The position numbers and the translations under genes are program-made. The notes beneath the pieces were generated by a model. The model made no database searches, was not told the DNA's origin, and worked only from the letters and a program-made list of their open reading frames with translations. Shown here piece by piece: positions 1-63,400 of a stretch of 64,000 nucleotides of DNA (position 1 is its first letter; every line of letters begins with the position of its first letter). The stretch is from Squalus acanthias (lineage: Eukaryota). Location: assembly GCA_030390025.1 (NCBI GenBank), contig CM059431.1, forward strand, positions 130,512,001 to 130,576,000. The letters are read 5' to 3'.

Positions 1-878
1 CAAATCTGCAAAGGCTGGTGACATTGACTTCTGTTGTGAGAGCCTGGCTTCAGTGACACTGGAGATGGCTACGCTCTCCAAGGTAGACTGCAGAATGTTG
101 ATCCCCTGGTAGATGACACCACACGGGCTGGAAGCGGACTCCTTCACACTTTCAACCTTTGTGGTGAAAGTCCTTGGTAGGCCTTCCAATACCTGATATA
201 ACTGCTTGCGCGAAGCAAGCAGTTTTGTTCACATCTCTGTCCTTCTCCACAGAACTGGAAGAGGACCTCGCCCTCTGGCAAGCTCTCTCATGGACTGTCT
301 CTGCTACCAATACCTGCTGTTGCTCACTACTGCTGAGTGCATTACCACATACAGATCTCTCTAATTCTCTAACTCATCTGGGGTTGCCAATCCCTGTACT
401 GGTGCCTCCTCACAAGGATTCTTCTTCTCTGAGTTGCCTTCTTCTGCCAGCTGCAGAAGTTGAGAAGGACCTAGAGGAAAGAGAAAAGGAACAAAAGTTA
501 GCATGGCAATGAGAGATTAGATAGTGGCAGATGACAAGCATCACAATGCAACAATGTAGTCAAGTTGCTTGATAATGCATTTTTCAGAGGTTTATGGCAG
601 GGTGCAAGTAATCAGAGATCCTGTTCAGAGAAGTCTCTGGCTTCAAAATCTCCTATCCTGACAGTCAGGAGGGGCCACTAATTTCCAGCATTTGCTGCTC
701 CAGTTCAAAGAGGTTCATGCTGTTTCTGGTGCTCCCCTAGTCTTAATCTTCTCCCTTGTGTTGTGCGCTGTCTTGTCCTACAGAGGTCATGATGTAGAGA
801 TGCCGGCGTTGGACTGGGGTGGACAAAAATGAGAAGTCGCACAACACCAGGTTATAGTCCAACAGATTTATTTAAAAT

Positions 879-914
879 TACAAGCTTTCGGAGCTGTCGC
901 TCCTTCTTCAGGTA
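879..914 (-). ncRNA. Minimal type I hammerhead ribozyme motif
   Basis: Exact reverse complement of the motif at 1292-1327. Confidence 0.75.
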
Positions 915-1291
915 GGGTAGCTGTGAGAGAATCTCCCAGAATTCACAATATAAACACAGAAAAAATGTATTCCAATCTTTCCCTACATCAAAGACACACT
1001 AAGAGCACAGCCAAGACAATGAGATGTGTCCCAGGGGGTCCAACGTGTCAAAACACCTGCTGGCCGCATATCCTCTCCATTTGGGTTTGGTTCTTGTGTT
1101 AGTTTTTTTTTTAAAAGCTGGAAAGACCGGCCATGATGTCAAGTCACGTTCTGTATCGTGACATGAACCCGATATCGCGATTGAGGCCATCCTCATGAGT
1201 GCGGAACTTGGCTATCAGTTTCTGCTCTATGATTTTGCGTTGTCGTGTATCCCGAAGGCCGCCTTTCTGGGAGATTCTCTCACAGCTACCC

Positions 1292-1327
1292 TACCTGAAG
1301 AAGGAGCGACAGCTCCGAAAGCTTGTA
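1292..1327 (+). ncRNA. Minimal type I hammerhead ribozyme motif
   Basis: TAC-CTGAAGA-A-GGAGC(GACA)GCTCC-GAAA-GCTT-GTA: CUGAnGA and GAAA cores, 5-bp helix II, palindromic AAGCTT helix III, TAC/GTA helix I. Confidence 0.75.
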
Positions 1328-1744
1328 ATTTTAAATAAATCTGTTGGACTATAACCTGGTGTTGTGCGACTTCTCATTTTTGTCCTACAGAGAGAGAGGG
1401 CAAGAGTTAGTGAGTGTCTTCTACAAAGGAGAGTACAAATGTGTGGGGGTTTTGCATGCTGTGTAGATGTTGAGAGGGAGAAGAAGCAAGCTGGAATCAG
1501 AATGGGGAGGTGTTGAATGAAAAGCATGAGTGTGAAATGTGAATTGAGGAAGGAGCCATGAAGGGAGCAAAGATGAGGTGAGTGTCTGTTTGTAATGAAA
1601 ATGGCAGATGGCATTGTGTGTCCTTGTGCTGGGTGATGAAGGATGTGATGAAGTGGAGGGAATTGTTGAGAGTGGTATAGTATGAGGGAAGGTCTGTTGC
1701 TGTGTCTTGTTGAAAGAACTAGAGAAATGAAGAGTTGTACTCAC

Positions 1745-3476: not shown

Positions 3477-3577
3477 AAATAAAAACAGAAAATGCAGGAA
3501 ATACTCATCAGGTCAGGCAGCATCTTTGGAGAGAGAAACAGAGTTAACATTTCAGGTCGTTGACCTTTCATTAGAAC
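3477..3577 (-). mobile_element. Penelope-like pseudo-LTR fragment (second family) with degenerate hammerhead
   Basis: Closely matches 57262-57360 and 56761-56858; core mutated to CTAATGA. Confidence 0.7.
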
Positions 3578-6752: not shown

Positions 6753-7899
6753 TTGTCCCATCATCCATTGAGAGTAGCCTCTTTACAGCCATTTCTAGTT
6801 AAGAAATCAACCTCATTTGTTCAGTACTACAAGACATCAACTAAAAGTGTAAAACACGAATAAAAGAGCCCAACCGATTTTGTAACCACTAAATTGCTTG
6901 AACTAATTGCACTTGGAGACTCAGTTATTCTTTTCAATGATGCCGATATGAAGGTCAACTATGGTGATTCACGGGGATAAATCTTAGTAAAATATCAGAT
7001 CAGCTGAAAGAAAATATCAAATATAAATGCTAATGAGATGTAGCTTGGGGGACTGTAAAGATAAAATTGATAACATTTGCTATCCTAGACTTATGAGACA
7101 TAATTATCCTATAGTTGGTAATTGGGATACTGGTCATAGTAGTTATAGTGGACTGTAGCCTGGCTTTCCGTACCCCTGCTCCTCCAACCAGTGTCAATGT
7201 AGAGAACTATTGCTATGGCTAAGGAAAGATAAAGAGTATGAGGCCAACCAGCAGACAGCTGCAATAATAGTGTTTATGATATAAAATGAGCATCAAACTT
7301 TGGGCTGGATTTTGCTGTAGAAATAATGGTGAGGCTAACTAACCGTTATTAAAGTATTAATAAGTGATTAAGCACTTTACAGCTTTCCGAATACAACATT
7401 GAGTTTAACAATTTCAGATCATAACCACTGACCCCATTTTTTCCGACAGCAACTGTTGGTAATGATTCAAGTGGGAGTCTTCAGCACTTAAAGCTGTATT
7501 CCCTTCCGAACCTCAAAAAATGGGAACAGTGCTTCAGCACTAACGCAAATAGCTCAGCAAGCCAGGGAAAAGGGCACCCAGGGTCTCGCATGCAGCACTC
7601 CAGCTTTGTGCAGGGGGTCAACGCTGTAAGAGAAGTCCTCTACCCACAGGGGGCCAGGAAGCCCTCCAGAACAGAATTTAACTGCATCCCATATCCCTAA
7701 TGCTTTCCTAGTTTTAGTTTTAGTATTTGGGATCAGTCTTGGCTGGAAACAACAGGAATCCACTCATTAACTCCTGTAGGATTCCACTCAACATCTTCCT
7801 CCCCACACACCCCCGTCCCCGTCTGACATTACGTGACTCTCTCTGTCTCCTATTATTTAACAGCTTCTTATCCAGTCCTATAATTTACCCTGGAATCCT

Positions 7900-9609: not shown

Positions 9610-9785
9610 ATATAAAAATAAAAAATGCCTGGCAAAAAGATGGGTTAACATTTCAGTTATAGACTCTTCACTAGAACCTTATCGGAGTTCTGATGAAAGG
9701 TTTATGCCTTACATTTTAACCTATTTTTTTTTCACAATGCTGGCAGCCTTCCTACATATTTCCAGTATTTGCACTTTTTTTCAGT
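9610..9785. mobile_element. Decayed palindromic Penelope pseudo-LTR remnant
   Basis: GTTAACATTTCAG...GAGTTCTGATGAAAGG...TTTCCAGTATTT resembles 56761-56991. Confidence 0.45.
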
Positions 9786-10085
9786 TTGACTCAACTGGTA
9801 CATTCTCACTTTTGAGTTAGAAAGTTGTGGTTTTAAATCCCACTCCAAGATTTGAACACAATAATCCAAGAAGAAACATCAATGCAATATTGAGGAAGTG
9901 CTGCTTTAGTTGGAAGAGATATTAAACTGAGTCCCATCTACTTGTTCAGGTGGACATTAAAGATCCTATAGTACTATTTGAAGAAGAGCAGGGAGTTCTC
10001 CTGGTGTCATTAAGATTTGCCAGTCATTCATCTCATTGCTGTTTGTGGGATCTTGCTGTATGGAAACTGGTTGCACATTTGAAGT
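9786..10085 (+). mobile_element. Degenerate Deu-domain tRNA SINE
   Basis: Head and CAGGTGGACATTAAAGATCC..GAAGAAGAGCAGGG core homologous to 27683-28137. Confidence 0.7.
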
Positions 10086-20865: not shown

Positions 20866-22309
20866 GGCCGGAATTTTGCGGGGAGTCAGTGGGCGCGATC
20901 GGTGGCGGGTTGGGTGGGAAAGTGTTTTTTTCCCCAGCGGGTCGGGACCCTGCTGTGAACCCGCCGCCACGCGCCTTTCCCCATTGTCCGGTCTGTCAGC
21001 GCTGAGCAGACCCGACACGCAGCAGCGGGTGATCCAATTCAGGTCATTAGTGGCTTGTTTAGAGCTACTTAAGAATGATTTTCAGCTTAACTTTTGCATT
21101 TGACAGCTCGCCCATGGGTCCACGCTGGTCGTGGACCATGTCTGTCAAGCTGAGGCGAGAGTTCAGGGACCATTGAATCAGCTGTTGAGTTGTCAGTTTC
21201 AAATGTAAAGTAAAAGTTCCCACCTTACAGAGATCTCTTCCCACAGCCACAAGCTCTTCCTCACTACATTTCCACAACAGATTCACCATGCTGCAAGTCT
21301 TTACACAAATCTCTATCCAGTTTGATGTGCCAGCTTGGCACCACCCCACACCTATACCATAAAGCATCCCTACAATGCCCAAGCCATTCCTTTCACACTC
21401 ATCACCATTGAGTGGGTACCGTTATGTCTCACCATTCACTGCAATTCACTAAGCCACTTCCAAAGGTGCACACAAATCTGTCCAAGAACGCAAAGTGTAA
21501 ATAATAAAGGTTTCAATGTTTGATACCACATTAACAGAAACTTTACATAAACATTGCATAAAACACCCAAGTCCCTACCCTTGTGTGTTGTTAGTTCGTA
21601 TGTTTGCAGTAGGTTGAGGGTGAGTGTGAGGGGTGGCTAGTGAAATGGGGATGTGATAATATAGATAGAGAGGGATGGGTGGAGGTGCAACGTAAGTTGG
21701 TGTGAGTAAAGATGTGCAGGAGTAGGGTAGGGAAGGCAGAGTGATGTGGATGTGATGAGAGGCAAAGCAGGATGAGGTTGAGTGTGGCTTTGTACTAACG
21801 TTTAGTGATCTATTGAGATCATTGAAACATTTGCGGCACTGCACCCAGGTCCTCCTGACCACATCCCTGCTTGTGCCCTCCTGTGCAATGTGCAACCAGG
21901 CTGTGTTGATCTCCTGGGGAGGTCTCTTCTGCCCACGGGTAGGGAAGAGAACCTCCCTGTGTACTGTGACTCCCTCCATAAGCATATGGAGGGAGTCATG
22001 GGAGAGCCTGGGTGCAGCCCTGCAGTGATTGTCAGTGTTTGCAGCACCTCAATACTGTAGAACACTGACAGCACAAATGTCAAAATAAATTTGGACATGG
22101 TCTCTTTGAGGAAACTGGCTGATGATGCGTCATCAAATGACATCACCAGACCCACTTCCTCTAATTGGCCGGGAAACGCGCTGGGCGGGCTTAACAAGCC
22201 CTATTAATGGAAGTTCATTTTACAGAGTGGGATGGAGCCAGCAGCGGGGTTGGGACCCGCCACTGGCGTCGCCCGCCACAGACCCGATGAGGTCAGCAAA
22301 ATCGTGGCC
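20866..22309 (-). mobile_element. Non-autonomous Harbinger element with Myb/SANT exon
   Basis: TIRs GGCCGGAATTTTGC / GCAAAATCGTGGCC; TSD ATA; ORF LMEGV..VLFP..AWLHIAQE..RTWVQCRKCFNDL. Confidence 0.88.
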
Positions 22310-32151: not shown

Positions 32152-33939
32152 GGCCGTGATTTCACTGACCGAGGCAGGTCCGGGACAGCCGGGGTCGGTG
32201 TCGCGGTCCCAGCCCACTGCCAACTGCAGCCCGCTCTCTCCAAACGATATTTTGTTGATTGGGCTTGGTAAGCCCGCCCTGCGAGGTTCCGGCCAATTAA
32301 TAGGAAGCGGGTCTGATGAAGTAATTTGCTGACGCGTCATCAGCCGGGTTCCTTAAAGGGGCCATGTCCAAATTGATTTTGACAGTTCTGCTGTCAGTGT
32401 TCTACAGCATTGAGGTGCTGCAAACACTGACAAGCACTGCACAAAGGTGGACGGCTGCACCCAGGCTCTCCCATGACTCCCTCCATATGCTTATGGAGGG
32501 AGTCACAGCAAGCAGGAAGGTTCTGTTCCCGTCCCATGTGCGGAAGAGACCTCCCCAGGAGATTAACGCAGCCTGGTTGCACATTGCACAGGAGGGCAGA
32601 AGCAGGGATGTCGTCAGGAGGACCAGGCTGCTGTGGCACAAGCCTTTCAATGATCTGAGCAGATCACGAAACGTTACTGCCAAGCCACACTCAACCTCAT
32701 CCCGCTGTGCCAATCATCACATCCACATCACTCTGCCTTCCCTACCCTACTCCTGCACATCTTCACTCACACCAACTTACCTTGCACCTCCACCCATCCC
32801 TCTCTATCTACATTATCATTTCCCCATCTCACTAGCCACCCCTCACACTCACCCTCAACCTACTGCAAACATACGAACTAACAACACACAAGGGTAGGCA
32901 CTTGGGTGGTTTAGCCAATGGTCATGTGAAGTTTCTGTTAATATGTTGTCAAACATTGAAATCTATATTTCCAAGACTTTACCTTATTGGACAGATCTGT
33001 GCTCACCTTTGAAAGTGTCTGAGTGATATCCAGTGAATGCTGAGACATAACTCCACCCCGCCCCCCCCCCCCCCCCCCCCCCCCTAATTGTGATAAGTGT
33101 GAAACGAATGGATTGGACATTGTAGGGATGCTTTATGGTGCTGGTGTATGGTGGTGTCAACCTAGCACATCATGTGACAGCCAGGATTTACAGCGTCAAG
33201 TGAAGTAAATCTGGCCATGGTGATGCCATCGCTGGCCTCCCGGGCAGCAATGTTGCCCTGTGTCCTGTGCTGCATCAGGTGATTGCGGAGAAGGTTGATA
33301 TTGTTGTTGGTGATGTTGGTGTGCCTGGTGATGTTGGTGTTGGGGCTGATCATGGAGGGATTCAGAGGACCAAGGTGAAATTTTTTTAAGGGCACCTGAT
33401 GTTGCTGGAATAGATGGCAGCTGAAGTTGAATTGATAGAAGTGATCTGTCACTGGTCAGAGAGCTTGCTCCAAGGAGGTGACAGTGGATAGAGAGTTTAC
33501 TCCAAACACGTCCAAACTGCACACAGCTCAAAAGTGTCTTCCAACTCCTGAAGGCTCAAGCTTCTGACATTGGAAAGTGACCAGCTGTGAAATGGTAGCT
33601 TTCATACCACTTTTGCAGCTGTCACCTATTCACAGCAATGGGGAGACATAGAGAACCCGACCTACTTACCTGAAGTGATCTCCGAACAATGTGAACCCCG
33701 TTAAAAAAGTGGTAAAATAGAAATAGGCTGGCAAAATAGTAGTTAACAAGCGATTAACTATCTTAAATGCCTCCCCCGCCACTTGGTGTCGGGTCTGTTC
33801 TGAAATCGCAGACCCGACACTTTGGAAGCTTACATGGAGGCAGGTTCGGAGCGGGTTCCCAACCCGCTGGCAATCATTTCGATTTTGACAGTGGACCCGC
33901 CTCCGAACCCGCACTCTGAGCGCCAGCAAAATCGCGGCC
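32152..33939 (+). mobile_element. Non-autonomous Harbinger element (same family as 20866-22309)
   Basis: TIRs GGCCGTGATTT / AAAATCGCGGCC; TSD AAG; Myb/SANT exon APRLSHDSLHMLMEGV..FNDLSR on plus strand. Confidence 0.88.
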
Positions 33940-34423: not shown

Positions 34424-37400
34424 TACATAGATACATAGATACATAGAAGATAGGAGCAGGAGTAGGCCATCCGGCCCTTCGAGCCTGCTCCGCCATTTAA
34501 TGAGATCATGGCTGATCCTCCAATTCAGTATCCCGTCCCCGCCTTCTCTCCGTAACCCTTAACCCCTTTTGCCTGTAGAAATATATCTAATTCCCTCTTA
34601 AATATATTTAATGAGCTGGCGTACACTGCCCTCTGTGGCAATGAGTTCCACAGGTTCACCACCCTCTGAGTGAAGAAATTCCCCCTCATTTCTGTCCTAA
34701 ATGGTTTAGCCCTTATCTTTAAATTATGTCCTCTAGTTCTGTTCTCACCCGCCAAGGGAAACATTCCTTCTGCATCTAGTCTGTCTAGACCTGTCAGAAT
34801 TTTATACACTTCTATGAGGTCCCCTCTCAATCTTCTAAACTCCAGTGTGTACATCCCTAAACTACATAGTCTCTCCTCATAGGTCAATCCCGCCATTCCT
34901 GGTATCAGCCTGGTGAATCGCCGCTGCACCCCCTCCATGGCAAGAACATCTTTCCTCAGATGAGGCGACCAAAACTGTACACAGTACTCGAGGTGTGGTC
35001 TCACCAGTGCCCTGTACAGCTGCAGCAAGGTATCCCTGTTCCTGTATTCCAACCCTTTTGCTATGAAGGCCAGCATACCGTTTGCCTTCTTGACCGCCTG
35101 TTGCACCTGCATGCTCGCCTTCAGTGACTGGTGTACAAGAACACCCAGGTCTCTCTGTACTTCCCCCTCTCCCAATTTATTGCCATTTAAATAATAATTT
35201 GCCCTCCCGTTCCTGCACCCAAGGTGGATAACTTCGCACTTGTCCACATTATAGTGCATCTGCCATTTATCCGCCCAATCACCCAGTCTGTCCAAATCGC
35301 TCTGGAGCTTCCTGGTCTCCTCCTCTGAGCCCACCCCCCCTCCTAGTTTAGTGTCGTCTGCAAATTTGGAAATGCTGCATCCGACTCCCTGATCCAGGTC
35401 ATTAATGTAAATTGTGAACAGCTGGGGACCCAGGACAGATCCCTGTGGTACCCCACTTGTTACTGCCTGCCATTCAGAAAATGAGCCGTTTATTCCAACT
35501 CTCTGTTTTCTGACAGCCAGTTCTCTATCCACGTCAATACTTTCCCCTTTATCCCATGAGCTTCAATTTTCCATGCTAATCTTTTATGTGGGACCTTGTC
35601 GAAGGCCTTTTGGAAGTCCAGGTACACCACATCTACTGGCTCTCCCCCATCTATTTTACCAGTTACTCCCTCAAAAAATTCCAATAGATTAGTCAAGCAC
35701 GATTTACCCTTTGTAAATCCATGTTGACTCTGTCCTATCCTGTCCCCATTTGCTAAGTGCTCCGCTATTTCATCCTTAATGATGGACTCCAGCATTTTGC
35801 CCACAACTGATGTAAGGCTTACAGGTCTGTAATTACCTGCTTTTTCCCTACCCCCCTTTTTGAATAGTGGGGTAACGTTAGCTACCCTCCAATCCATGGG
35901 CACTGTTCCCGAGTCTAATGAATTCTGAAAAATCATACTTAGTGCATCCGCTATCTCTAGGGTCACCTCCTTCAGTACCCTAGGATGCATGTTATCAGGC
36001 CCTGGGGATTTGTCCGCCTTCAATCCCTTTAGCTTCCTTAACACCATATCCTTAGAGATATTGATTTGCGTCAGTTCCTCCTTTGCCAATGTCCCTATTT
36101 TTCCCGATATCCCAGGGAGGTTTTTTGTGTCTTCCTTCGTAAAGACTGACCCAAAGTATGCATTTAGTTGGTCTGCCATTTCCTTATTTCCCGTTATGTA
36201 TTCCCCCGTATCTGACTGCAATGGACCAACTTTGGTTTTCACCAGTCTTTTCCTCTTGATATACTTATAAAAGCTTTTGGAGTTAGTTTTTATATTTTCC
36301 GCCAGCTTGCTTTCGTAAGCTATTTTGCCCCTCTTGATTAAGCCCTTTGTCCTCCTTTGCTCTATCTTAAACTGTTCCCAATCTTCCGCTCTGGCGCTTT
36401 TTTTGGCTATTTTATACGCCCTATCTTTGGATTTTATGCTGTCTCTAATTTCCCCTGTTATCCACGGTTGAGTCACCTTTTTAGATTTCCTTTTATGCCA
36501 GATTGGTATAAACAATTTTTGCAATTTTGTCATTCTATCTTTAAATGCTTGCCATTGTTTATCTACCTCCAGTCCTCCCAGGAACGTTGTCCAATCAGAC
36601 CTACTCAGTTCCCGTCTAATGGCATCATAATTCCCCTTGTTTAAATTCAGGACCTTAGTCTCTGAGTCAATTTCTTCGCTCTCCATTTCGAGTGAGAAAT
36701 CGATCATGTTATGATCGCTCTGACCCAAGGGTCCCCGTACAACAAGATTACTAATTAGTCCCTTCTCATTGCACAGTACCCAGTCCAATATAGCCTGTTC
36801 CCGAGTTGGTTCCTCGACATATTGATCCAGATAACCATCCCTTAAACACTCAAGGAATTCCTCCTCCTCATTACTTTTACTGATTAGGCTAGTCCAATCT
36901 ATATGTAAGTTAAAGTCACCTATGATGACAGCTGTGCTCTTATTGCACGCTTCTCTAATTTCCCTCGTGATGCCCTCCCCAACCTCTATTTTACTATTTG
37001 GAGGCCTATATACCACTCCTATTAATATTTTTCGCCCCTCGCTATTTCTTAGCTCCACCCATATAGATTCTGTATTAACTGAGTTAATATCCTTCCTTTC
37101 AATTGCATTTATCCCCTCTTTTACCAGCAATGCTACCCCTCCTCCCTTTCTTTTTTGTCGATCCTTCCTAAATACTGAATACCCCTGTATGTTAAGCTCC
37201 CAGCCCTGCTCACCCTGCAACCATGTTTCCGTAATCCAATTAGATCATAATTATTAACCTCTATTTCTACAGCTAATTCATCTACCTTGTTCCTGATGCT
37301 TCTCGCATTAAGGTATAAAACCCTCAGGCTTTTTTTATGCTCACATTTTTTATGAATTAGTTTGGCCCTTTGTTTTTTGTTCCTCACCCTTTTACCATTT

Positions 37401-42844: not shown

Positions 42845-44770
42845 TAATCACCCTTGTGCATTCCGGTAGTGTCTGTCTTTCGTGTGCCTTTGCCTAATCT
42901 AGTGCTCCTATGAAGAGCTACCCCAGTGGCTGCAGCATGACTGGTGCAGACTGCACCCCCTTGGCATGGGCAGCAGCAGTCTGGGCTGGCTGACAGGCAA
43001 CTGCACTGGCACTGGTGGAGTGGCAGTGGTGGAAGTACGAGTGCTGTCATCCTGAGAGAAGACAGCAGGTTCTTGCTCTACAGAGCCACTGCCACTCCCC
43101 CGGGGTGGCGCCTCAGCATTGCTAGCCATCAATTCAGGACAGATTGCTGGATTACTGTGAGACCCTGTAAGCCCCTTTCCACACTTGTAAACCCAGCCAC
43201 CTGGCAGCAGTCTGATCTTGCGTGGCAGCAAGCAGAGCCTGCATGACAGAAGTCTGAGCTTCCACTGCAGCACTCAGACGTTGAGTCGCTTCTGATTGTG
43301 CTGCAATGGAAGCTGTGACATCGCCCATCAGACCCTGCATCATGGTTGGATCCACAAGTGTTCTAATGGAGTTGCCCATCACTTCTATCCTGGAAATCAT
43401 GGGACTCCTCCATGCTCCTTGACAGTGACAAGAGGCTCTCTGGCAGGCCTGCCATTGCACCAAGCATTTCTGTGTGCATGCCCATCACCCTTCTTCTGAA
43501 GGCTGCCCCATCGAAGTCCTCATCTGAGCGCTCTGCAGCAGAACTCATGTGCAACCTCACCCTCCGGAGAGCTGGCACCTGAGCTACCCTTTCCCACTGG
43601 CCTCGCTGCAGCCTACGCATGCCCGGTGACTCACCACGTGCAGATCCTGCCTCTATACTACTCTCTAAAGTTCGTGCAGTGCTACTTTCTGAGCTGGTGC
43701 CTGAGAGTGTCAGATTGAGTGACAGTGTCTCTTCTTCTCCATCACTTCTCCTCTACTTCTTCCTGCACAAAAATGAGAAGTCGCACAACACCAGGTACAA
43801 GTACGAAGAAGGAGCACCGCTCCGAAAGCTCGTAATTTTAAATAAAACTGTTGGACTATAACCTGGTGTTGTGCGACTTTTTCATTTTTGTCCACCCCAG
43901 TCCAACACCGGCATCTCCGCATCATCTTCCTGCACAGGTTGGGCTGGTGGCAGTTCTTTGGTATCTGAAAAGAGAAAGGCACAAGGGTCAGGTTATGGTT
44001 GGGGTGGGTGGGTGGGGAAGCAAGATGTGCATGCTTACACCATCAGCAGCTTGTAAGCGAGAAGAGATTGTGGGATGAAGGGGAAGTGGAATGTAAGAAG
44101 AACAATTAGGTATGAGCACGATATCATCATCGATGCTTTCAGCCTCGCCGATCACCACAGCCTCAGTGACGGCCCCTCCAATTATCTCCAGCACTGTCTC
44201 CTTTAGCTGTGGCAATTTCTGCAGCCATGATTGCCGCCAGCCTGTTTGCTCTGCTCGCGCCGGTTAGGAGCCACCTTAGCCTGCAAGGGAAAGGGAAGTG
44301 TGTCAGTGAGTGTGATGCAATGTGTTTGGGTTATATGTCTGTCATGGCTAAATAGCTGGCAATTTTGTGCTGGGTGTGAGATGTGGGTGTGAGGCTTGCA
44401 ACAGTGGTAAGTGTGTGAAGGTGAGGTGAAGCTATGATTGTGAGGTATCAGTCATGATTGGTAGAGATTGTTGGTAGGTGAGTGACAGGGGTGTGGTGCA
44501 TTGAGCAGTGTGTGAGGCTAGTGGTGCAGTAGGTGGGATATGACATTTGAAGATGCATTTGTTCACTTTGACCACTCGTATGAGGTCATTAAACTTCTTC
44601 CGGCACTGGATCCATGTCCTAGGAGAGAGTCTGGTGGCACTGACCACTTCAGCGATCTCTTCCCACTGCCTTCTAACATTGTGTCTGGAAAGCCTCCTGG
44701 CCCCTGTGGGTAGAGGACCTGTCTCCTCCTGTACATCCATTGCACCAAGGCCTCCAGTGCTGCCCTGTTG
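42845..44770 (-). pseudogene. Spliced Myb/SANT-like accessory gene of Harbinger
   Basis: QWEEIAEVVSA..RTWIQCRKKFNDLIRVVK|GT; acceptors at about 44282 and 43967; coiled-coil-like later exon. Confidence 0.75.
43770..43924 (+). mobile_element. Very short Penelope-like insertion (same family as 786-1385)
   Basis: TSD TCTTCCTGCACA (43758-43769 / 43925-43936); ~31-bp inverted repeat; hammerhead remnant GAAGAAGGAGCACCGCTCCGAAAGCTC lacking the first CT. Confidence 0.85.
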
Positions 44771-45276
44771 AGACACTGCTAACTTCCAGCTCCACTCAGA
44801 ATGAGGTGCTTCTTTCACAAAGCACCTCCCCTTTAAGAAGTGCAGACAGCCTTTCACTCTGTGGGAAACCTTTAAATACCGAGCAGACTTCCCATGATAT
44901 TGGGCCCCCTGTTGAGTGCTGAGCCAATCAGCAGTGCGTTTAGCGCTGGATGCAGCGCTGCAATCATGTTAACAATCAGGCGTCGCGATCTGCCCGCTCC
45001 CGTTTTCAGGCCTTATCCACTTTAGCCCCCCGGAACACTTGGCTCCACTCGCCTGGGTATGGCTCAAACTCATAAGCTTCCAACTCAGAGGCAGGAATGC
45101 TACCACTGAGCTCACTCCAGTTAAATAGCATAATCAAATTAAATTGTTTAAAATACTACTTACCTTACCAGTGACTGATGTGAATAATGTATCAATTGGC
45201 ATAAATAAGTTCTACGTCTCCAGTGTAATTAATTGCAACCTCTCTATTTTACTATGAATTTTGATTGTCAGATAAT

Positions 45277-54830: not shown

Positions 54831-56760
54831 TTTTTGTTTAATCTAGTAATCTAAATTGTGTTACTAAACTGATATTTACAAGAGGTGTTAAACTGATGTT
54901 AACGTAAACAACAGATGTTGAGGGGAGAAAAAGCGGAGCTTTGAATAACTGTACAAAACATCTGTTAGCTTTCACGCAGACTCTGTTTTATTTATGACTT
55001 ATTACAGTGCTTTCTGTAGACTAATATGTTTATTGATATGAGTCTATTAGCTGATTTTCATTTAATAAATGGCCTAAATATACCACACCATGATATAAGT
55101 TGATGTGCCGAGATAGCCTGCTGAATGTCGAGATTATTCAGCAGTTTCCGAACTACATAAGAGTTTATAACACTGCAGAAAGCAAAGGATGTGTGATAGG
55201 AAAAAACAAGTTTTGAAGGGAAAATTGGAAGTGCTAAATTTCCTTTGGCCTCTAATCAGGAATTTTCCGATCTGCTGTAAAAAAAAATTCTAGAATTTCC
55301 AAGTAAATGGAACCTCTTAACTGAAAACTTTGTAAGTAACCACTTGCTGAAAAAAATGCAGTAAAATTGCAGATATCCCACATTTTGGCAAGTGGGGAAA
55401 TCTTCGTGAATAAGACCCTTTGATTAGTTTTGTTATAAAATGAATATTTTTGGTATTCAACACTCATCAGCTGCATATTCTATTTATAGCAAAAAAGCAC
55501 CATGGAACATGAGCATTTCTGACAATTTCAAAAATATGTCAATAGATTCTGTATGCATGCTTTAGCAGAGACCGAGCAGTATCAAACAACACAAAGGCAA
55601 GTCTCTGGATAGTCAGTTCTTGCTACTGGGGACTTTTGGAGCCACTTTATGGCTGCTTTGGCTGAGTTTAGAAAGCCTTTAATACTAAATAGCTGTTGGA
55701 GAGCTGACTTTTGGCTGCAGCTGTACTCTGTCACTTCACTGGGTGCAGGAGTACTGGAAAATATGGGAATGTTGCTGGGATTGCCATTGAGACTGCCACA
55801 CCAGGGGGAACAGCAGCACAGAGGGCAAAGAAGGCCTTATAGGATGCGGGTTTTCCGCAACAAGGTGTCTTGCCTCCAAATGACAGAGGAACAGTGTATA
55901 AGACATAGGAGCAGGAGTAGGCCATACGGCACATCGAGCCTGCTCCACCATTCAGTAACATCATTCCTGAACCTTTACGTCAACTCCACTTTCCCGCCCA
56001 ATCTCATATCCTTGATTCCCTTAGTGATCAAAAATCAATCAATCTCTGTCTTGAATATACTCAACGACTGAGCGTCCACAGCTGTCTGGGGTAGAGAATT
56101 CCAAAGATTCACTACCCTCTGAGTGAAGAAATGTCTCCTCATCTCAATCGTAAATGGCCAACCCCTTATCCTGAGACAATGGCCCCCAGTTCTAGACTCT
56201 CCAGCCAAGGGAAACAACCTCTCAGCATCTACCCTGTCAATCCCTCTAAGAATTTTATACATTTTAATAAGATCACCTCTTATTGTTCTAAACTCCCGAA
56301 AATATAGGCCTATTCTACTCAATCTCTCCTCGTAGGACAGCCCTCTCATCCCAGGAATCAATCTAGTGAACCTTTGTTGCACCCACTCTCAGGCAAGTAT
56401 GTCCTCCCTTAGGTAAGGAGACCAAAACTGTGCACACTACTCCATGTGTGGTCTCACCAAAAGCCCTATATAATTGCAGCAAGACTTCCTTACTCTTATA
56501 CTCCAACCCCCTTGCAATAAAGGCTAACATACCATTTGCCTTCCTAATTGACTGCTGTACGTGCAACTTAACTTTCTGTGATTTATGTACAATGACCCGC
56601 AAATCCCTCTGCATACCAACGTTTACGAGTCTCTCACCTTTTAAAAAATATTCTGCTTTGCCATTCTTCCTACCACAGTGGATAATTTCACACTTCCCCA
56701 CATTATACTCCATCTGCCACTTTCTTGCACAATCACTTAACCTGTCTATATCCCTTTGCA

Positions 56761-56991
56761 AAATAACAACAGAAAACACTGGAAAAACTCAGCAGGCCAG
56801 GCAGCATCCGTGGAGAGAGAAACAGAGTTAACGTTTCAGGTCGAAGACCTTTCGTCAGTTCTGACGAAAGGTCTTCGACCTGAAACGTTAACGCTGTTTC
56901 TCTCTCCACGGATGCTGCCTGGCCTGCTGAGTTTTTCCAGCGTTTTCTGTTGTTATTTCGGATTTCCAGCTTCCGCAGTATTTTGCTATCG
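56761..56991 (+). mobile_element. Palindromic Penelope-derived mini-element with twin hammerhead cores
   Basis: 98-bp arms (56761-56858 / 56861-56958, 2 mismatches, TT spacer) plus 33-bp tail; 14-bp TSD TATATCCCTTTGCA. Confidence 0.9.
56858..56892 (+). ncRNA. Minimal type I hammerhead ribozyme motif
   Basis: GTT-CTGACGA-A-AGGTC(TTC)GACCT-GAAA-CGTT-AAC. Confidence 0.75.
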
Positions 56992-57261
56992 TATATCCCT
57001 TTGCAGTCTCTTTGCGTCCTCCTCACAGCTTACTTTCCCACCTAGCTTTGTATCGTCAGCAAACTTGGATATATTACATTTGGTCCTCTCACTCTAAGTT
57101 ATTGATATAGATTGTAAATAGCTGAGGCTCAAGCACTGATCCTTGCGGTACCCCACTAGTTACACTCTGCCATCCCGAAAATGACCCGTTTATTCCTACT
57201 CTCTGTTTTCTGTCTGTTAACCAATTCTCAGTCCAATCCTCAATCCTTGCTAGTGTATGAG

Positions 57262-57894
57262 CAATAAAAACAGAAAATGTTGGAAATACAGAGCAGGTCA
57301 GGCAGCATCTATGGAGAGAGAAACAGTTAACGTTTCAGGTTGATAACCTTTTGTCAGAACTGGAAGAAGTTAGTGATGTAACAGTTTTTAAGCAAATACA
57401 GAGACAGGAAAAGCGGTGAGGATAGGAAAGAACAAAAGGGTAGGTCTGTGATAGAATGAAAGGCAGGAATGATTAAATGACAAAAGGGATGATAGTGCAA
57501 GGCAAAAGGGGGTGATAATGGGAAAAGTAAAGAAACAAAAGATGGGTCTAGATAAGGTGTAAATGGCAACAGCAGAATCATTACCAGCACCTGCTGTCTG
57601 AAAAACTGGGAGCAGCGGTTATGATCTGAAATTGTTGAACTCGATATTGAGTCTAGAAGGTTGTAAAGTGCCCAATTGAAAGATGAGGTGCTGTTCCTTG
57701 AGCTTCATTGGAACAGTGTAGGAGGCCGAGGACAGAGAGGTCAGAGTGGGGGTGGGACAGAGAATTAAAATGGAAAGCAACCGAAAGCTAAGAGTCATGC
57801 TTGCGGACTGAACGGAGGTGTTCAGCAAAGCGATCACCCAATCTGTGATTGGTCTCCCCAATGTAGAGGAGACTGCATCATGAGCAGCGAATAC
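57262..57894 (-). mobile_element. Penelope-like element 3' fragment (GIY-YIG remnant + pseudo-LTR)
   Basis: CIRCS*CSLLYIGETNHRLGDRFAEHL..LKEQHLIFQLGTLQPSRLNIEFNNF; hammerhead at 57324-57362 with core CTGACAA; TSD AGTGTATGAG. Confidence 0.9.
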
Positions 57895-60639: not shown

Positions 60640-63400
60640 GTGTCTTGGCTGAGGGGCTGGTGAGGGACCAATAAGGGAGCAGACATGCTGACATCCTGAG
60701 AGAGGGCATCACGTGCTGCCCTCACTGTATCACTCCCACTCCCATGGGCTGGGGCCGATCACTCCCATGGGCCGGGGCTGATCACTCCCATGGGCTGGGG
60801 CTGATCACTCCCATGGGCCGGGGCTGATCACTCCCATGGGCTGGGTCTGATCACTCCCATGGGCTGGGGCTGGTCACTCCCATGGGCTGGGGCTGATCAA
60901 TCCCATGGGCCGGGGCTGATCACTCCCATGGGCCGGGGCTGATCACTCCCATGGGCCGGGGCTGATCACTCCCATGGGCCGGGGCTGATCACTCCCATGG
61001 GCCGGGGCTGATCACTCCCATGGGCTGGGGCTGATCACTCCCATGGGCTGGGGCTGATCACTTCCACTCCCATGGGCTGGGCTGATCACTCCAATGGGCC
61101 GGGGCTGATCACTCCCATGGGCTGGGGCTGATCACTCCCATGGGCTGGGGCTGATCACTTCCACTCCCATGGGCTGGGGCTGATCACTTCCACTCCCATG
61201 GGCCGGGGCTGATCACTCCCATGGGCCGGGGCTGATCACTTCCACTCCCATGGGCTGGGGCTGATCACTCCCATGGGCTGGGGCTGATCACTTCCACTCC
61301 CATGGGCCGGGGCTGATCACTCCCATGGGCCGGGGCTGATCACTTCCACTCCCATGGGCTGGGGCTGATCACTCCCATGGGCCGGGGCTGATCACTCCCA
61401 TGGGCTGGGGCTGATCACTCCCATGGGCTGGGGCTGATCACTTCCACTCCCATGGGCTGGGGCTGATCACTTCCACTCCCATGGGCCGGGGCTGATCACT
61501 CCCATGGGCCGGGGCTGATCACTTCTACTCCCATGGGCTGGGGCTGATCACTTCTGCAGGAGAGCAGACTGCAGAAGACCATTGACTCCTTCAAATTTCC
61601 TATTCATTTGCTGCACAAATCTCTTCAAGGCGGATGTCTGTCTCTGCAAGGTCAATTTCTACCTCTCTAAGGCAGAGCACAGGTTTGACCCCAGAGTCTA
61701 CATGGTAGCTGTTTGAGGTTCCACCAAAACTGCAAAGACTATGACCATTGACTTCTTGTGAGGGCCCGGCTGCAACATTCCTGGATGTGGACACTCCAAT
61801 GTAGACTCCATAGTGCTGATGCCCTGCGAGATGACATCACACAGGCTGAAAGCAGATTCCGCCTCATTTTCAGCCATGGTGGTGAAACTCATTGGCAAGT
61901 CTTCCAATACCTGTATAACTGCTTATGTGAAGCAAGCAGTTTTCTTCTCATTGCAGGATCCCTGAAGTCCACCTGTCTGTCCTCCTCAGCAGTGCTGGGA
62001 TAGGATCTCGTGAGCTGCCTCCTGGACTATCCCTGCCACCAGCACCTACTGCTGCTCACTATTGTTGGGTGTTTCACCACATGTAAATCCATTTAACACA
62101 CTCTGTAACCCTTTTATTTAACTCTGTAAGCTCGTGCTTGAATTGATGGAGCATGTCATGGTGCCTCCTGAGAAGGATTCTCCTCCTCCTGAGGTGTCTT
62201 CATCATGGGCTCAGCGTTACTGAGGAGGACCTAGAGGAAAAAGAACAGGAACAAGAGTTGAGCATGGCACTGAGAGGCTGGAGGGTAGAAGATGACAAGC
62301 ATCACAATGCAGCTTGATGTAGTTAAGCTGTGTGATTGTGTGTTTTACAGAAGATCATGAAAGGATGCAATTGACAGTCAGATACCCTGTTCACAGAGGT
62401 CTCTGGCCTTGAAATCTCCTATCCTCACAGCTCTGGTGTGCCCCCTGATTTCTAGCACTTGCTGCTCCAACTCGGAGAGTTTCATGATGTTGGCTGGTGT
62501 TCCCTGGTCGTACTCCTCTCCCTTGTGTTGAATACTGTCTTGTTCTGCAGAGAGAAAGGGCGAGAATTAATGAGGGTCTCCTGAAAAGGAGAGTGCAGAT
62601 GAGTGGGGCTTGTGCTTGTGTGGATGTCGGGAGGAAGAAGAGCAAGTTGGAATTAGGATGGGGAGGTATTAGATGAAAGGCAGGTGTGTGGAGTGTGAAG
62701 TGAGGAAGGAGACTTGAGAGAAGGTGGTGATTGTGCAAAGGCTACCAAGTGAGAAGAGAACGCTGCTAATTGCTCCTGTGAAGGGAGCAAGGAAGAGGTG
62801 AGTGTGTGTTTGTAATGAGAATGAAGGGTGGTGAGTCCTTGTGCTGAAGGATGTGATAGAGGGGAGGGAATTATTGAGAGAGCTGGAGGAGGGGGCCAAA
62901 GGCTGTTGACATGTGTTGTTGTGCGAGGTGAAGAAATGAAGAACTATGCTCACCCTTGCTACTCTTGAGAGATTATCAAAGCGCTTCCTGCACTGTATCC
63001 AGGATCTGGGGTGATGTTCTTGGGGCTGACAGTCTCAGCAATCTCACCATGGCTGCTGAACTTGGTGCTTTGAAATCCTCTTCCCACTGGCTGGAAAGAT
63101 AACTTTCCTCCTCACCTTGATCTCCAGGGAGGCTTCAGAGAACCTGGAGGTTTGTCTGTGACATTTTGAAGTTCTTTCTTCATGCAGCAGTCCAACAGCG
63201 AAATTTTGCAGATAGAAATGCGACATCGCTTTAAGAGGTGCATTACCACTTTAAATATTCCTCTGGCTGACCCACCAGCAATTGCGCTTCGGAATTGGGC
63301 ACATTTCCTAGCGTGTCAGTGAATTGCGATTTTAATGAGGTGCATAATACCCCAGCCTTGTTTTCTGAGGCAGCGGGTGCGTTTCGGAGTTAAATTCAGG
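60640..63400 (-). mobile_element. Harbinger Myb/SANT element remnant, paralog of 1-2233
   Basis: SRFSEASLEIKVRRKVIFP..WIQCRKRFDNL; long colinear similarity to about 190-1940. Confidence 0.75.
60729..61555. repeat. GC-rich minisatellite, 23-bp unit ACTCCCATGGGC(T/C)GGGGCTGATC with 29-bp variants (+ACTTCC)
   Basis: More than 30 near-identical tandem units. Confidence 0.97.

Follow-up and report, generated by a model that had tools for sequence, protein, structure and literature searches.

The 64,000-nt stretch of Squalus acanthias DNA analyzed here (the window) contains a 231-nt insertion that splits a decayed LINE (Table 1). Its two inverted arms of 98 nt each are separated by 2 nt and mismatch at only two places, 56778/56941 and 56826/56893, with 95 of 97 positions identical when the right arm is compared with the left. 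A reading of the letters alone (the sequence-only reading) had described the whole 231 bp as a palindrome with its own 14-bp target site duplication (TSD). The arms bear out this description, whereas the last 33 nt form an unpaired tail that belongs to the right arm only. The TSD is exact: apart from its two copies the 14-mer is absent from the window, and repeats of 14 nt at this spacing were found at 1 of 63,500 window positions. A scan of the 64-kb window for short-spacer palindromes passed none besides 56761–56958. The predicted RNA fold of the element reaches −186.9 kcal/mol (z −26.5), which none of 200 shuffles equaled, and this prediction agrees with the long hairpin anticipated by the sequence-only reading.

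Table 1. Coordinates of the 231-nt insertion, its host and related copies in the window.
Feature	Positions	Strand	Remarks
Left TSD, 14 bp	56747..56760	+	identical to 56992-57005
Inverted tail-less copy of PLE pLTR end, 98 nt	56761..56858	−	
Junction	56856..56860	+	3-nt overlap 56856-56858 common to both copies, then 2-nt spacer
Direct copy of PLE pLTR end, 98 nt	56861..56958	+	
One-sided PLE tail, 33 nt	56959..56991	+	
Right TSD, 14 bp	56992..57005	+	
Minimal type I hammerhead (candidate)	56861..56892	+	descriptor scan
Minus-strand core, incomplete	56830..56858	−	helix II present, helix I 0 bp; descriptor scan
Host: decayed LINE reverse-transcriptase region split by the insertion	56300..57240	−	limits approximate
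Longer 5′-truncated PLE copy of the same family	57262..57894	−	GIY-YIG end, 3′ UTR, pLTR end, without tail
Solo arm of the same family	3478..3577	−	starts 3 nt upstream of core; no mirror half
Decayed mirror insertion, same or related family	9612..9790		approximate; 15 nt between cores
Second hammerhead family, mirror insertion	786..1379		arms 121 nt, 100% alike, 323 nt apart
Second family, asymmetric stub	43770..43924		27-nt inverted arm, short filler

The empty site can be read from two sources. Both flanks align without gaps, across the insertion point, to a paralogous LINE at ~35.2–35.4 kb, and 23 contigs of run X16 run from 56992 into sequence resembling the left flank. The insertion is thus as clean as had been claimed, and motifs in the host suggest that it is of CR1 type. 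Its DNA is 70.7% identical to the LINE at 34856–35512, whose frames carry Exo_endo_phos and RVT_1 domains, and the host itself yields a weak RVT_1 match at 57095–57238 (E 0.0011). A nearly intact LINE with endonuclease and reverse transcriptase (RT) domains in two overlapping frames is present at 34525–37244 on the minus strand.

The arm sequence is that of the pLTR (3′) end of a Penelope-like element (PLE), the end that bears the hammerhead, and a longer, GIY-YIG-bearing copy of this element lies 270 nt away. The right arm matches this long copy at 82 of 98 positions and the solo copy at 83 of 98. The long copy has its own 10-bp TSD (57252–57261/57895–57904), and in it the arm runs on into the GIY-YIG-bearing sequence. 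The broken frame of the long copy matches Pfam GIY-YIG with an E of 0.0029, below the curated cut-off, and is identical at 49 of 67 positions to P0001, an RT and GIY-YIG protein labeled skate by its source, which points to a cartilaginous fish as the probable host. The RT of the family is absent from the window, and the link to RT comes via P0001. The features expected of a PLE were found together: membership in a GIY-YIG/RT element, a minimal hammerhead, a one-sided tail in the 30–40-bp range, an inverted 5′-truncated copy and a TSD of variable length (10–14 bp among the window insertions). Judged by its sequence, the 231-nt insertion is the known PLE pattern of inverted pLTR, direct pLTR, tail and TSD at its minimum size.

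Could such a palindrome be a fold-back artefact of assembly or library preparation, or a MITE-type DNA transposon? Library preparation can generate perfect hairpins, graph assemblies can break on them, and MITEs are palindromic. On the other hand, the two arm mismatches, the one-sided tail, the exact TSD and the clean empty site all speak against these explanations, as do the continuity of the sequence with an RT/GIY-YIG element and the termini, which are not inverted repeats. MITE membership was rejected on the last point and on the TSD, which has no fixed length, either in the window or in the metagenome family M1 described below (6–15 bp). We regard both explanations as barely credible.

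Other copies in the window share parts of this anatomy. The sequence-only reading had pointed to a decayed look-alike at 9610–9785, and the look-alike is real (score 69, compared with at most 35 in 300 shuffles and at most ~44 in unrelated tiles), but its centre is not the same: the cores of the window's two mirror copies lie 2 nt apart in one and 15 nt apart in the other. No TSD was found at the look-alike. In the second family, the mirror insertion at 786–1379 has a one-sided tail and a 13-bp TSD and breaks off 30 nt before the core; the stub at 43770–43924 consists of a direct copy from the core plus tail, with a 12-bp TSD, in addition to its short inverted arm. The ~240 nt of filler at 942–1184 match nothing else in the window, and the first 6 nt of the TSD of this mirror insertion are shared with the continuation of the element, a possible priming homology. 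The solo arm is enclosed by a 15-bp direct repeat (3405–3419/3592–3606), together with ~55 nt of non-family sequence beside the tail-less end; this repeat is not a plain TSD. A fragment at 7367–7474 resembles the end of the ORF and the 3′ UTR of the long PLE copy and has no hammerhead arm.

The overall architecture is already known from PLE insertions. According to the available portions of three reports (PMC3846280, PMC8557442, PMC8969392), an inverted pLTR overlaps a direct copy in such insertions, with a one-sided 30–40-bp tail, a TSD and palindromic junctions. The 231-nt stub shares with these complex insertions of EN+ PLEs, as far as their accessible descriptions go, the head-to-head inverted copy, the overlap of a few bases, the tail at one end, a TSD of ~8–15 bp and palindromes at the inverted junction. 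In contrast to the complex insertions as described there, the stub has neither an ORF nor a second direct pLTR, so that the insert consists of two ends, with the 5′ edge of the hammerhead as the stopping point of both copies.

A minimal-hammerhead descriptor matched the window four times, compared with a mean of 0.1 in 200 shuffles, and the four matches are the two cores of the 231-nt element and two cores of the second hammerhead family. Rfam matched no hammerhead anywhere in the window. The plus-strand hammerhead is composed of a core (56861–56867), a bulge (56868), helix II (56869–73/56877–81) and a GAAA (56882–85), with a predicted cut between 56889 and 56890. Its helix I is cut to 3 bp by a private change at 56893, where 98% of the X1 depth has T instead of G. 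The back-to-back cores of the sequence-only reading are seen as descriptor fits at 56861 (+) and 56858 (−), although the minus core lacks helix I. In the whole-element transcript of either strand, helix II has a predicted probability of ~1e-17, compared with 0.98 in a lone arm. The whole transcript would thus be a 98-bp duplex that buries both cores, and the ribozyme is predicted to be unable to fold.

Minimal type I hammerheads of metazoan PLEs have been described, and the portion of that report available to us notes opposite-strand pairs 100–700 bp apart (PMC4209133). By that description, the stub resembles them in its core boxes, the bulged base after position 9, the 5-bp helix II, the short helix I, the palindromic 15.2–16.2 pair and the lack of helix III. 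It differs from the hammerheads described there in that its opposite-strand cores lie 2 nt apart, pair 10.1–11.1 is A-U rather than G-C, and the minus copy is without helix I.

One reading frame crosses the whole element without a stop codon. Protein searches returned no long protein carrying its peptide: the first peptide searches gave no match, and later ones gave six, namely five short frames of 63–107 aa and one repetitive protein of 402 aa. In four of the short-frame matches, unrelated sequence immediately precedes the core, which fits truncation there, weakly. Because the peptide is absent from long proteins, the element is still regarded as non-coding, as it had been from the start. The possibility that the arm is the start of the PLE ORF was dropped, as no long RT protein with the peptide was found.

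To what extent are the outer ends fixed in the family? In the contig data, the tail-less end at 57263 is marked by 806 loose-end records in X1, 63 in X15 and 62 in X16, and the outer end of the left arm is its equivalent, the fixed tail-less end of the family. At the tail end, 17 X16 contigs have loose ends behind 56987; since this is the usual end of the family's tail, the last 4 nt of the 33-nt tail are extra. Each strand of the insert, read inward from the TSD, is therefore antisense PLE sequence starting at one fixed family end. The summed X1 depth is 4.2–6.5 million over the arm, compared with 0.09–2.1 million over the upstream parts. The enrichment of the arm over the LINE is ~10-fold in X15 and X16 compared with ~2-fold in X1, and is not counted as transcription, the runs X1, X15 and X16 being only guessed to be RNA.

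In these contig runs, in which a one-arm reference was used, no strand-change joint at 56859–61 was present among the 15 of 281 joints listed, and the joints listed include none for the predicted intron discussed below. In the raw-read run X24, 36 of ~10 million reads matched. Other left-arm to right-arm junctions of the window family are present in contigs. One of these, a shortened mirror junction joining 57333 to 56863 in X1 at a depth of 750, may be multi-copy and could represent either a mirror copy that has been amplified or an artefact of the assembly graph. X1 also contains joints of 56957–56995 to 57263, in 5–7 contigs each, that connect an arm or tail end to the tail-less end of another copy; these could reflect clustering of stubs, with sides of only 22–27 nt.

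A family-specific pattern had no matches in viral and metagenome contigs. We then turned to a generic pattern of back-to-back cores with a spacer of 0–16 nt, a bound that hides breaks farther from the core and leaves their share out of the counts. It matched at least 119 metagenome loci and 3 viral loci. Among the matches listed, 78 of the 122 loci have mirror arms, mostly of 75–100 nt; the other 44, including the 3 viral ones, have arm scores below 60 (chance-like, decayed or cut) and were left out, as were 5 same-flank duplicates among the 78. At least 73 independent mirror loci were thus obtained, 44 in family M1, 17 in family M2 and 12 singles, none of them of the window's family. The hosts of these loci are probably animals. 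M1 and M2 are putative PLE families, assigned by their anatomy. Across families, 99 of 146 arms among the matches listed keep the core and a helix II of differing, still-paired sequence. Rfam, run on 10 of the 122 loci, returned no hammerhead and mainly sub-threshold microRNA models.

The anatomy of the stub recurs in these loci. After loci cut by contig ends were set aside (11 of 44 in M1 and 1 of 17 in M2), one of the two arms, and not the other, carried a tail in 30 of 33 M1 loci and, with a cruder threshold, in 9 of 16 M2 loci. A TSD of at least 8 nt was found at 18 of 33 M1 loci compared with 10 of 1056 mismatched flank pairs, and at 5 of 16 M2 loci compared with 1 of 240. Among the matches listed, the 44 M1 loci have 36 distinct centres and the 17 M2 loci have 14. 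Pairs with the same centre are no closer than others (49–56 against a mean of 53.0 in M2; 54.5–71.5 against a mean of 60.4 in M1), and partner arms are closer to each other than 89–95% of foreign arms in both families. Consequently, each mirror goes back to a single template lineage and was made in the course of its own insertion. Because the tail is on one arm, the centres are so many and the same-centre copies form no clade, the mirror appears, from these sequence comparisons, to be built anew at each insertion rather than inherited as a unit. The clade of palindromic copies envisaged in the sequence-only reading was therefore not recovered in M1 and M2, the families in which it was sought.

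These results also bear on whether the stub propagates itself. Animal retrozymes are direct tandems of same-strand hammerheads that release circles, as set out in the available parts of two reports (PMC7229834; 10.64898/2026.07.22.740005). Like the non-LTR retrozymes of animals, as far as those parts describe them, the stub is short and non-coding, has a type I hammerhead, is related to PLEs and has a TSD of more than 4 bp. Unlike them, it is an inverted pair whose transcript is predicted to be unable to fold the ribozyme. Retrozyme membership was rejected because the cores lie on opposite strands, with no tandem array at the locus, because the minus core lacks helix I, and because the predicted hairpin would bury both cores, at the helix II probability given above for either strand.

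More generally, the whole palindrome of a non-autonomous mini-element, retrozyme-like or hairpin SINE-like, could be transcribed and re-inserted by the PLE protein. The very high representation of the arm in X1 contigs, the junction variant at depth 750, the recurrence of some centres (4 of 44 in M1 and 3 of 17 in M2) and the presence of the tail that the PLE protein needs are all compatible with such a unit. However, the recurrent centres span different subfamilies, as expected from 2-nt microhomology, and 36 centres among the 44 M1 loci listed are many for one propagating unit. Without same-strand tandem cores, no monomer or circle would be released, by the retrozyme definition in the accessible text of PMC7229834. 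Furthermore, the predicted loss of helix II in the whole transcript, compared with the arm alone, argues against it, and re-insertion must copy through a 98-bp duplex. We consider this explanation highly improbable, and the self-propagating mini-element proposed in the sequence-only reading is not supported.

Where does the inverted copy meet the direct one? Upstream of the core, the right arm agrees with the unrearranged long copy over a run of 5 nt and the left arm over 0 nt; 3 of these 5 nt are common to the inverted copy and form a 3-nt microhomology. Of the 10 PLE 5′ ends in the window, 6 are no more than 5 nt away from the start of the core. Family 1 has six ends, five of them at 0–5 nt and the sixth at 537 nt upstream of the core; in family 2, one of four ends is at the core and the others are 30 nt upstream, more than 100 nt upstream and ~65 nt downstream, so that 4 of 10 ends (three of family 2 and one of family 1) are far from the core. 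The M1 arms reach 0–8 nt upstream of the core, with two loci readable as −10. At most 3 M1 arms share a PLE-like 10-nt upstream word, compared with 6–13 expected if the breaks were scattered. The 8-nt limit has P values of 0.0002, 0.011 and 0.11 at assumed divergences of 3, 6 and 10%, respectively, and is suggestive only. Five mirror copies (L011, L012, L042, L061 and L106) have a short duplication of the core start inside one arm, as if synthesis had restarted near the boundary.

Overall, the pile-up of 5′ ends covers 0–8 nt upstream of the core, and three unrelated families show such clustering at the 5′ strand of helix I. The breakpoints thus cluster near the 5′ edge of the core, as the sequence-only reading had it, but not at one exact base. 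Such a pile-up suggests that the RNA has a fixed boundary, which could be an intron acceptor or a start site.

The same pile-up could be taken to mean that the ribozyme itself sets the centre, through self-cleavage or an RT stop at the fold. Reverse transcriptases stall at the 3′ foot of a helix and not after unwinding it, and a stop on these grounds would be expected at the 3′ foot. The predicted cut lies 29 nt downstream of the palindrome centre and both arms run through it; therefore, the cut cannot set the centre. Moreover, insertion by PAc, a Poseidon-type PLE of Anolis carolinensis, needs no cleavage (PMC11167929). We consider a centre set by the ribozyme unlikely. The arms end at a place that matches an acceptor-like or start-site-like signal no less well than it matches the ribozyme, and guidance by the ribozyme structure, part of the sequence-only reading, is not borne out by these positions.

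In the long copy, positions −5, −16, −34 and −227 relative to the core are occupied by an acceptor-like triplet and by branch-like, TATA-like and donor-like motifs, respectively. In window coordinates, the acceptor-, branch- and TATA-like motifs lie at 57359–57391 and the donor-like one at 57584 (minus strand), which could correspond to a pLTR intron or promoter. The acceptor was read by inspection of motifs, with no scoring model, and a second acceptor-like stretch occurs near the tail-less end. In D. virilis, the available portions of two reports place the end of a PLE intron at the 5′ end of helix I (PMC4209133) and the intron 46 nt after the start site (PMC2377424). Given the long-copy motifs and this D. 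virilis intron, the template boundary could lie at an intron acceptor or at a start site, which we treat as a lead and not as a result.

How might the stub have been made? The PLE protein (RT plus GIY-YIG) would have cut the LINE with a 14-nt stagger, giving rise to the observed TSD. Both target 3′ ends would then have primed reverse transcription on PLE RNA, as the anatomy and the in vitro work on PAc suggest, one from the start site of the tail and the other from the tail-less start site, which lies 33 nt further inward. Both cDNAs stopped after ~100–130 nt, at a preferred boundary a few bases upstream of the hammerhead core; the stop is most likely the 5′ boundary of the template, at an intron acceptor or transcription start, and not the ribozyme cut. 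Finally, the two 3′ ends would have been joined head to head via the 3-nt microhomology and filled in. Given this anatomy, the insertion is very likely a PLE stub made at insertion and, more specifically, probably a dead-on-arrival, minimum-size stub of an endonuclease-bearing PLE. In this form, the first option of the sequence-only reading, in which Penelope retrotransposition repeatedly yields extremely truncated products with an inverted copy, is supported, with breakpoints clustered near the 5′ edge of the core.

Two-ended priming has parallels in other elements. In twin-primed 5′ inversions of L1, both target ends prime and the cDNAs join at microhomology, each piece having copied a different part of one RNA. 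In the 231-nt stub, by contrast, both ends copy the same 100 nt, and a palindrome results. The PAc protein cuts and extends both strands in vitro and is predicted to be a dimer; reverse transcription begins at two sites that delimit the tail, and the template RNA is uncleaved, hammerhead cleavage not being needed (PMC11167929). The window family is similar to PAc in that two fixed ends delimit the tail and the hammerhead is upstream of both (PMC11167929). Mirror products and 5′ junctions are not described in the available main text of that report, and an ORF start in the hammerhead, when the window family is compared with PAc, is without support.

Alternatively, one cDNA could have folded at its 3′ end, primed its own copying as far as the tail-less position and only then joined the other target end. 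The minus strand reads exactly as such a snap-back would leave it (tail, arm, 2-nt loop and copied arm), and a micro-hairpin with a 3-bp stem and a 2-nt loop is already present in the unrearranged copy. The arms share two changes relative to the commonest contig sequence, which points to one template, as does the closeness of partner arms in M1 and M2; self-priming has also been proposed for PLE palindromes, in the accessible part of PMC3846280. On the other hand, the mirror arm usually ends where solo tail-less copies do, which two-ended priming explains directly, and 26 of the 44 M1 junctions have filler or are unmatched, while 6 are blunt, leaving no stem to prime on; the remaining 12 have overlaps of 1–2 nt. 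Likewise, ~240 nt of unrelated filler separate the copies in the 786–1379 insertion, and identical arms are also expected if a single RNA lineage is used twice.

The products predicted by two-ended priming and by snap-back hardly differ, and the ready-made micro-hairpin and the near-identical arms fit both alike. We favor two ends because 32 of 44 M1 junctions are filler or blunt and the tail-less ends are fixed, the census of centres covering M1 and M2 rather than the window's own family. Snap-back is, on the whole, somewhat unlikely. If the insertion is taken to be a PLE stub, two-ended priming has slightly better than even chances, snap-back is a possible but lesser candidate, and any other route is quite unlikely. 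A tentative and more specific proposal is that mirror stubs record a two-ended integration, in which a protein dimer primes both ends on a short and defined RNA, from the tail back to a fixed boundary (intron acceptor or start site) just upstream of helix I. If so, stubs would be a main PLE output in several animal lineages and an abundant source of 75–100-bp RNA duplexes.

The single locus gives no sign of function, and the 231-nt insertion appears to be real and mostly ordinary, apart from the unexplained fixed stopping point beside the ribozyme. We did not find the stub class, or the pile-up at the 5′ end of helix I, in the literature searched, although supplements, Repbase, Dfam, Arkhipova 2006 and Evgen'ev and Arkhipova 2005 may list them. 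Likewise, the available portions of PMC5753468 and PMC6155905 contain neither the minimum-size form nor the pile-up. How PLE integration is completed and why ends are inverted are still undefined, according to the accessible text of PMC8557442, PMC3846280 and PMC11167929. Stubs provide natural junctions by the thousand, each with its centre and its two outer ends readable in one short stretch; therefore, a simple census can tell two-ended priming apart from snap-back and show where the template has its 5′ boundary. There is also a risk of taking stubs for MITEs, retrozymes or microRNA hairpins.

Two further features of the window were noted. A minisatellite with 33 copies of a 23-nt unit occupies 60737–61552. 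Repeats at 21414–22041, 32431–33058 and 44432–44968 have frames with a common Cys/Trp-containing helix motif, which may be that of Harbinger-associated Myb/SANT-like proteins.
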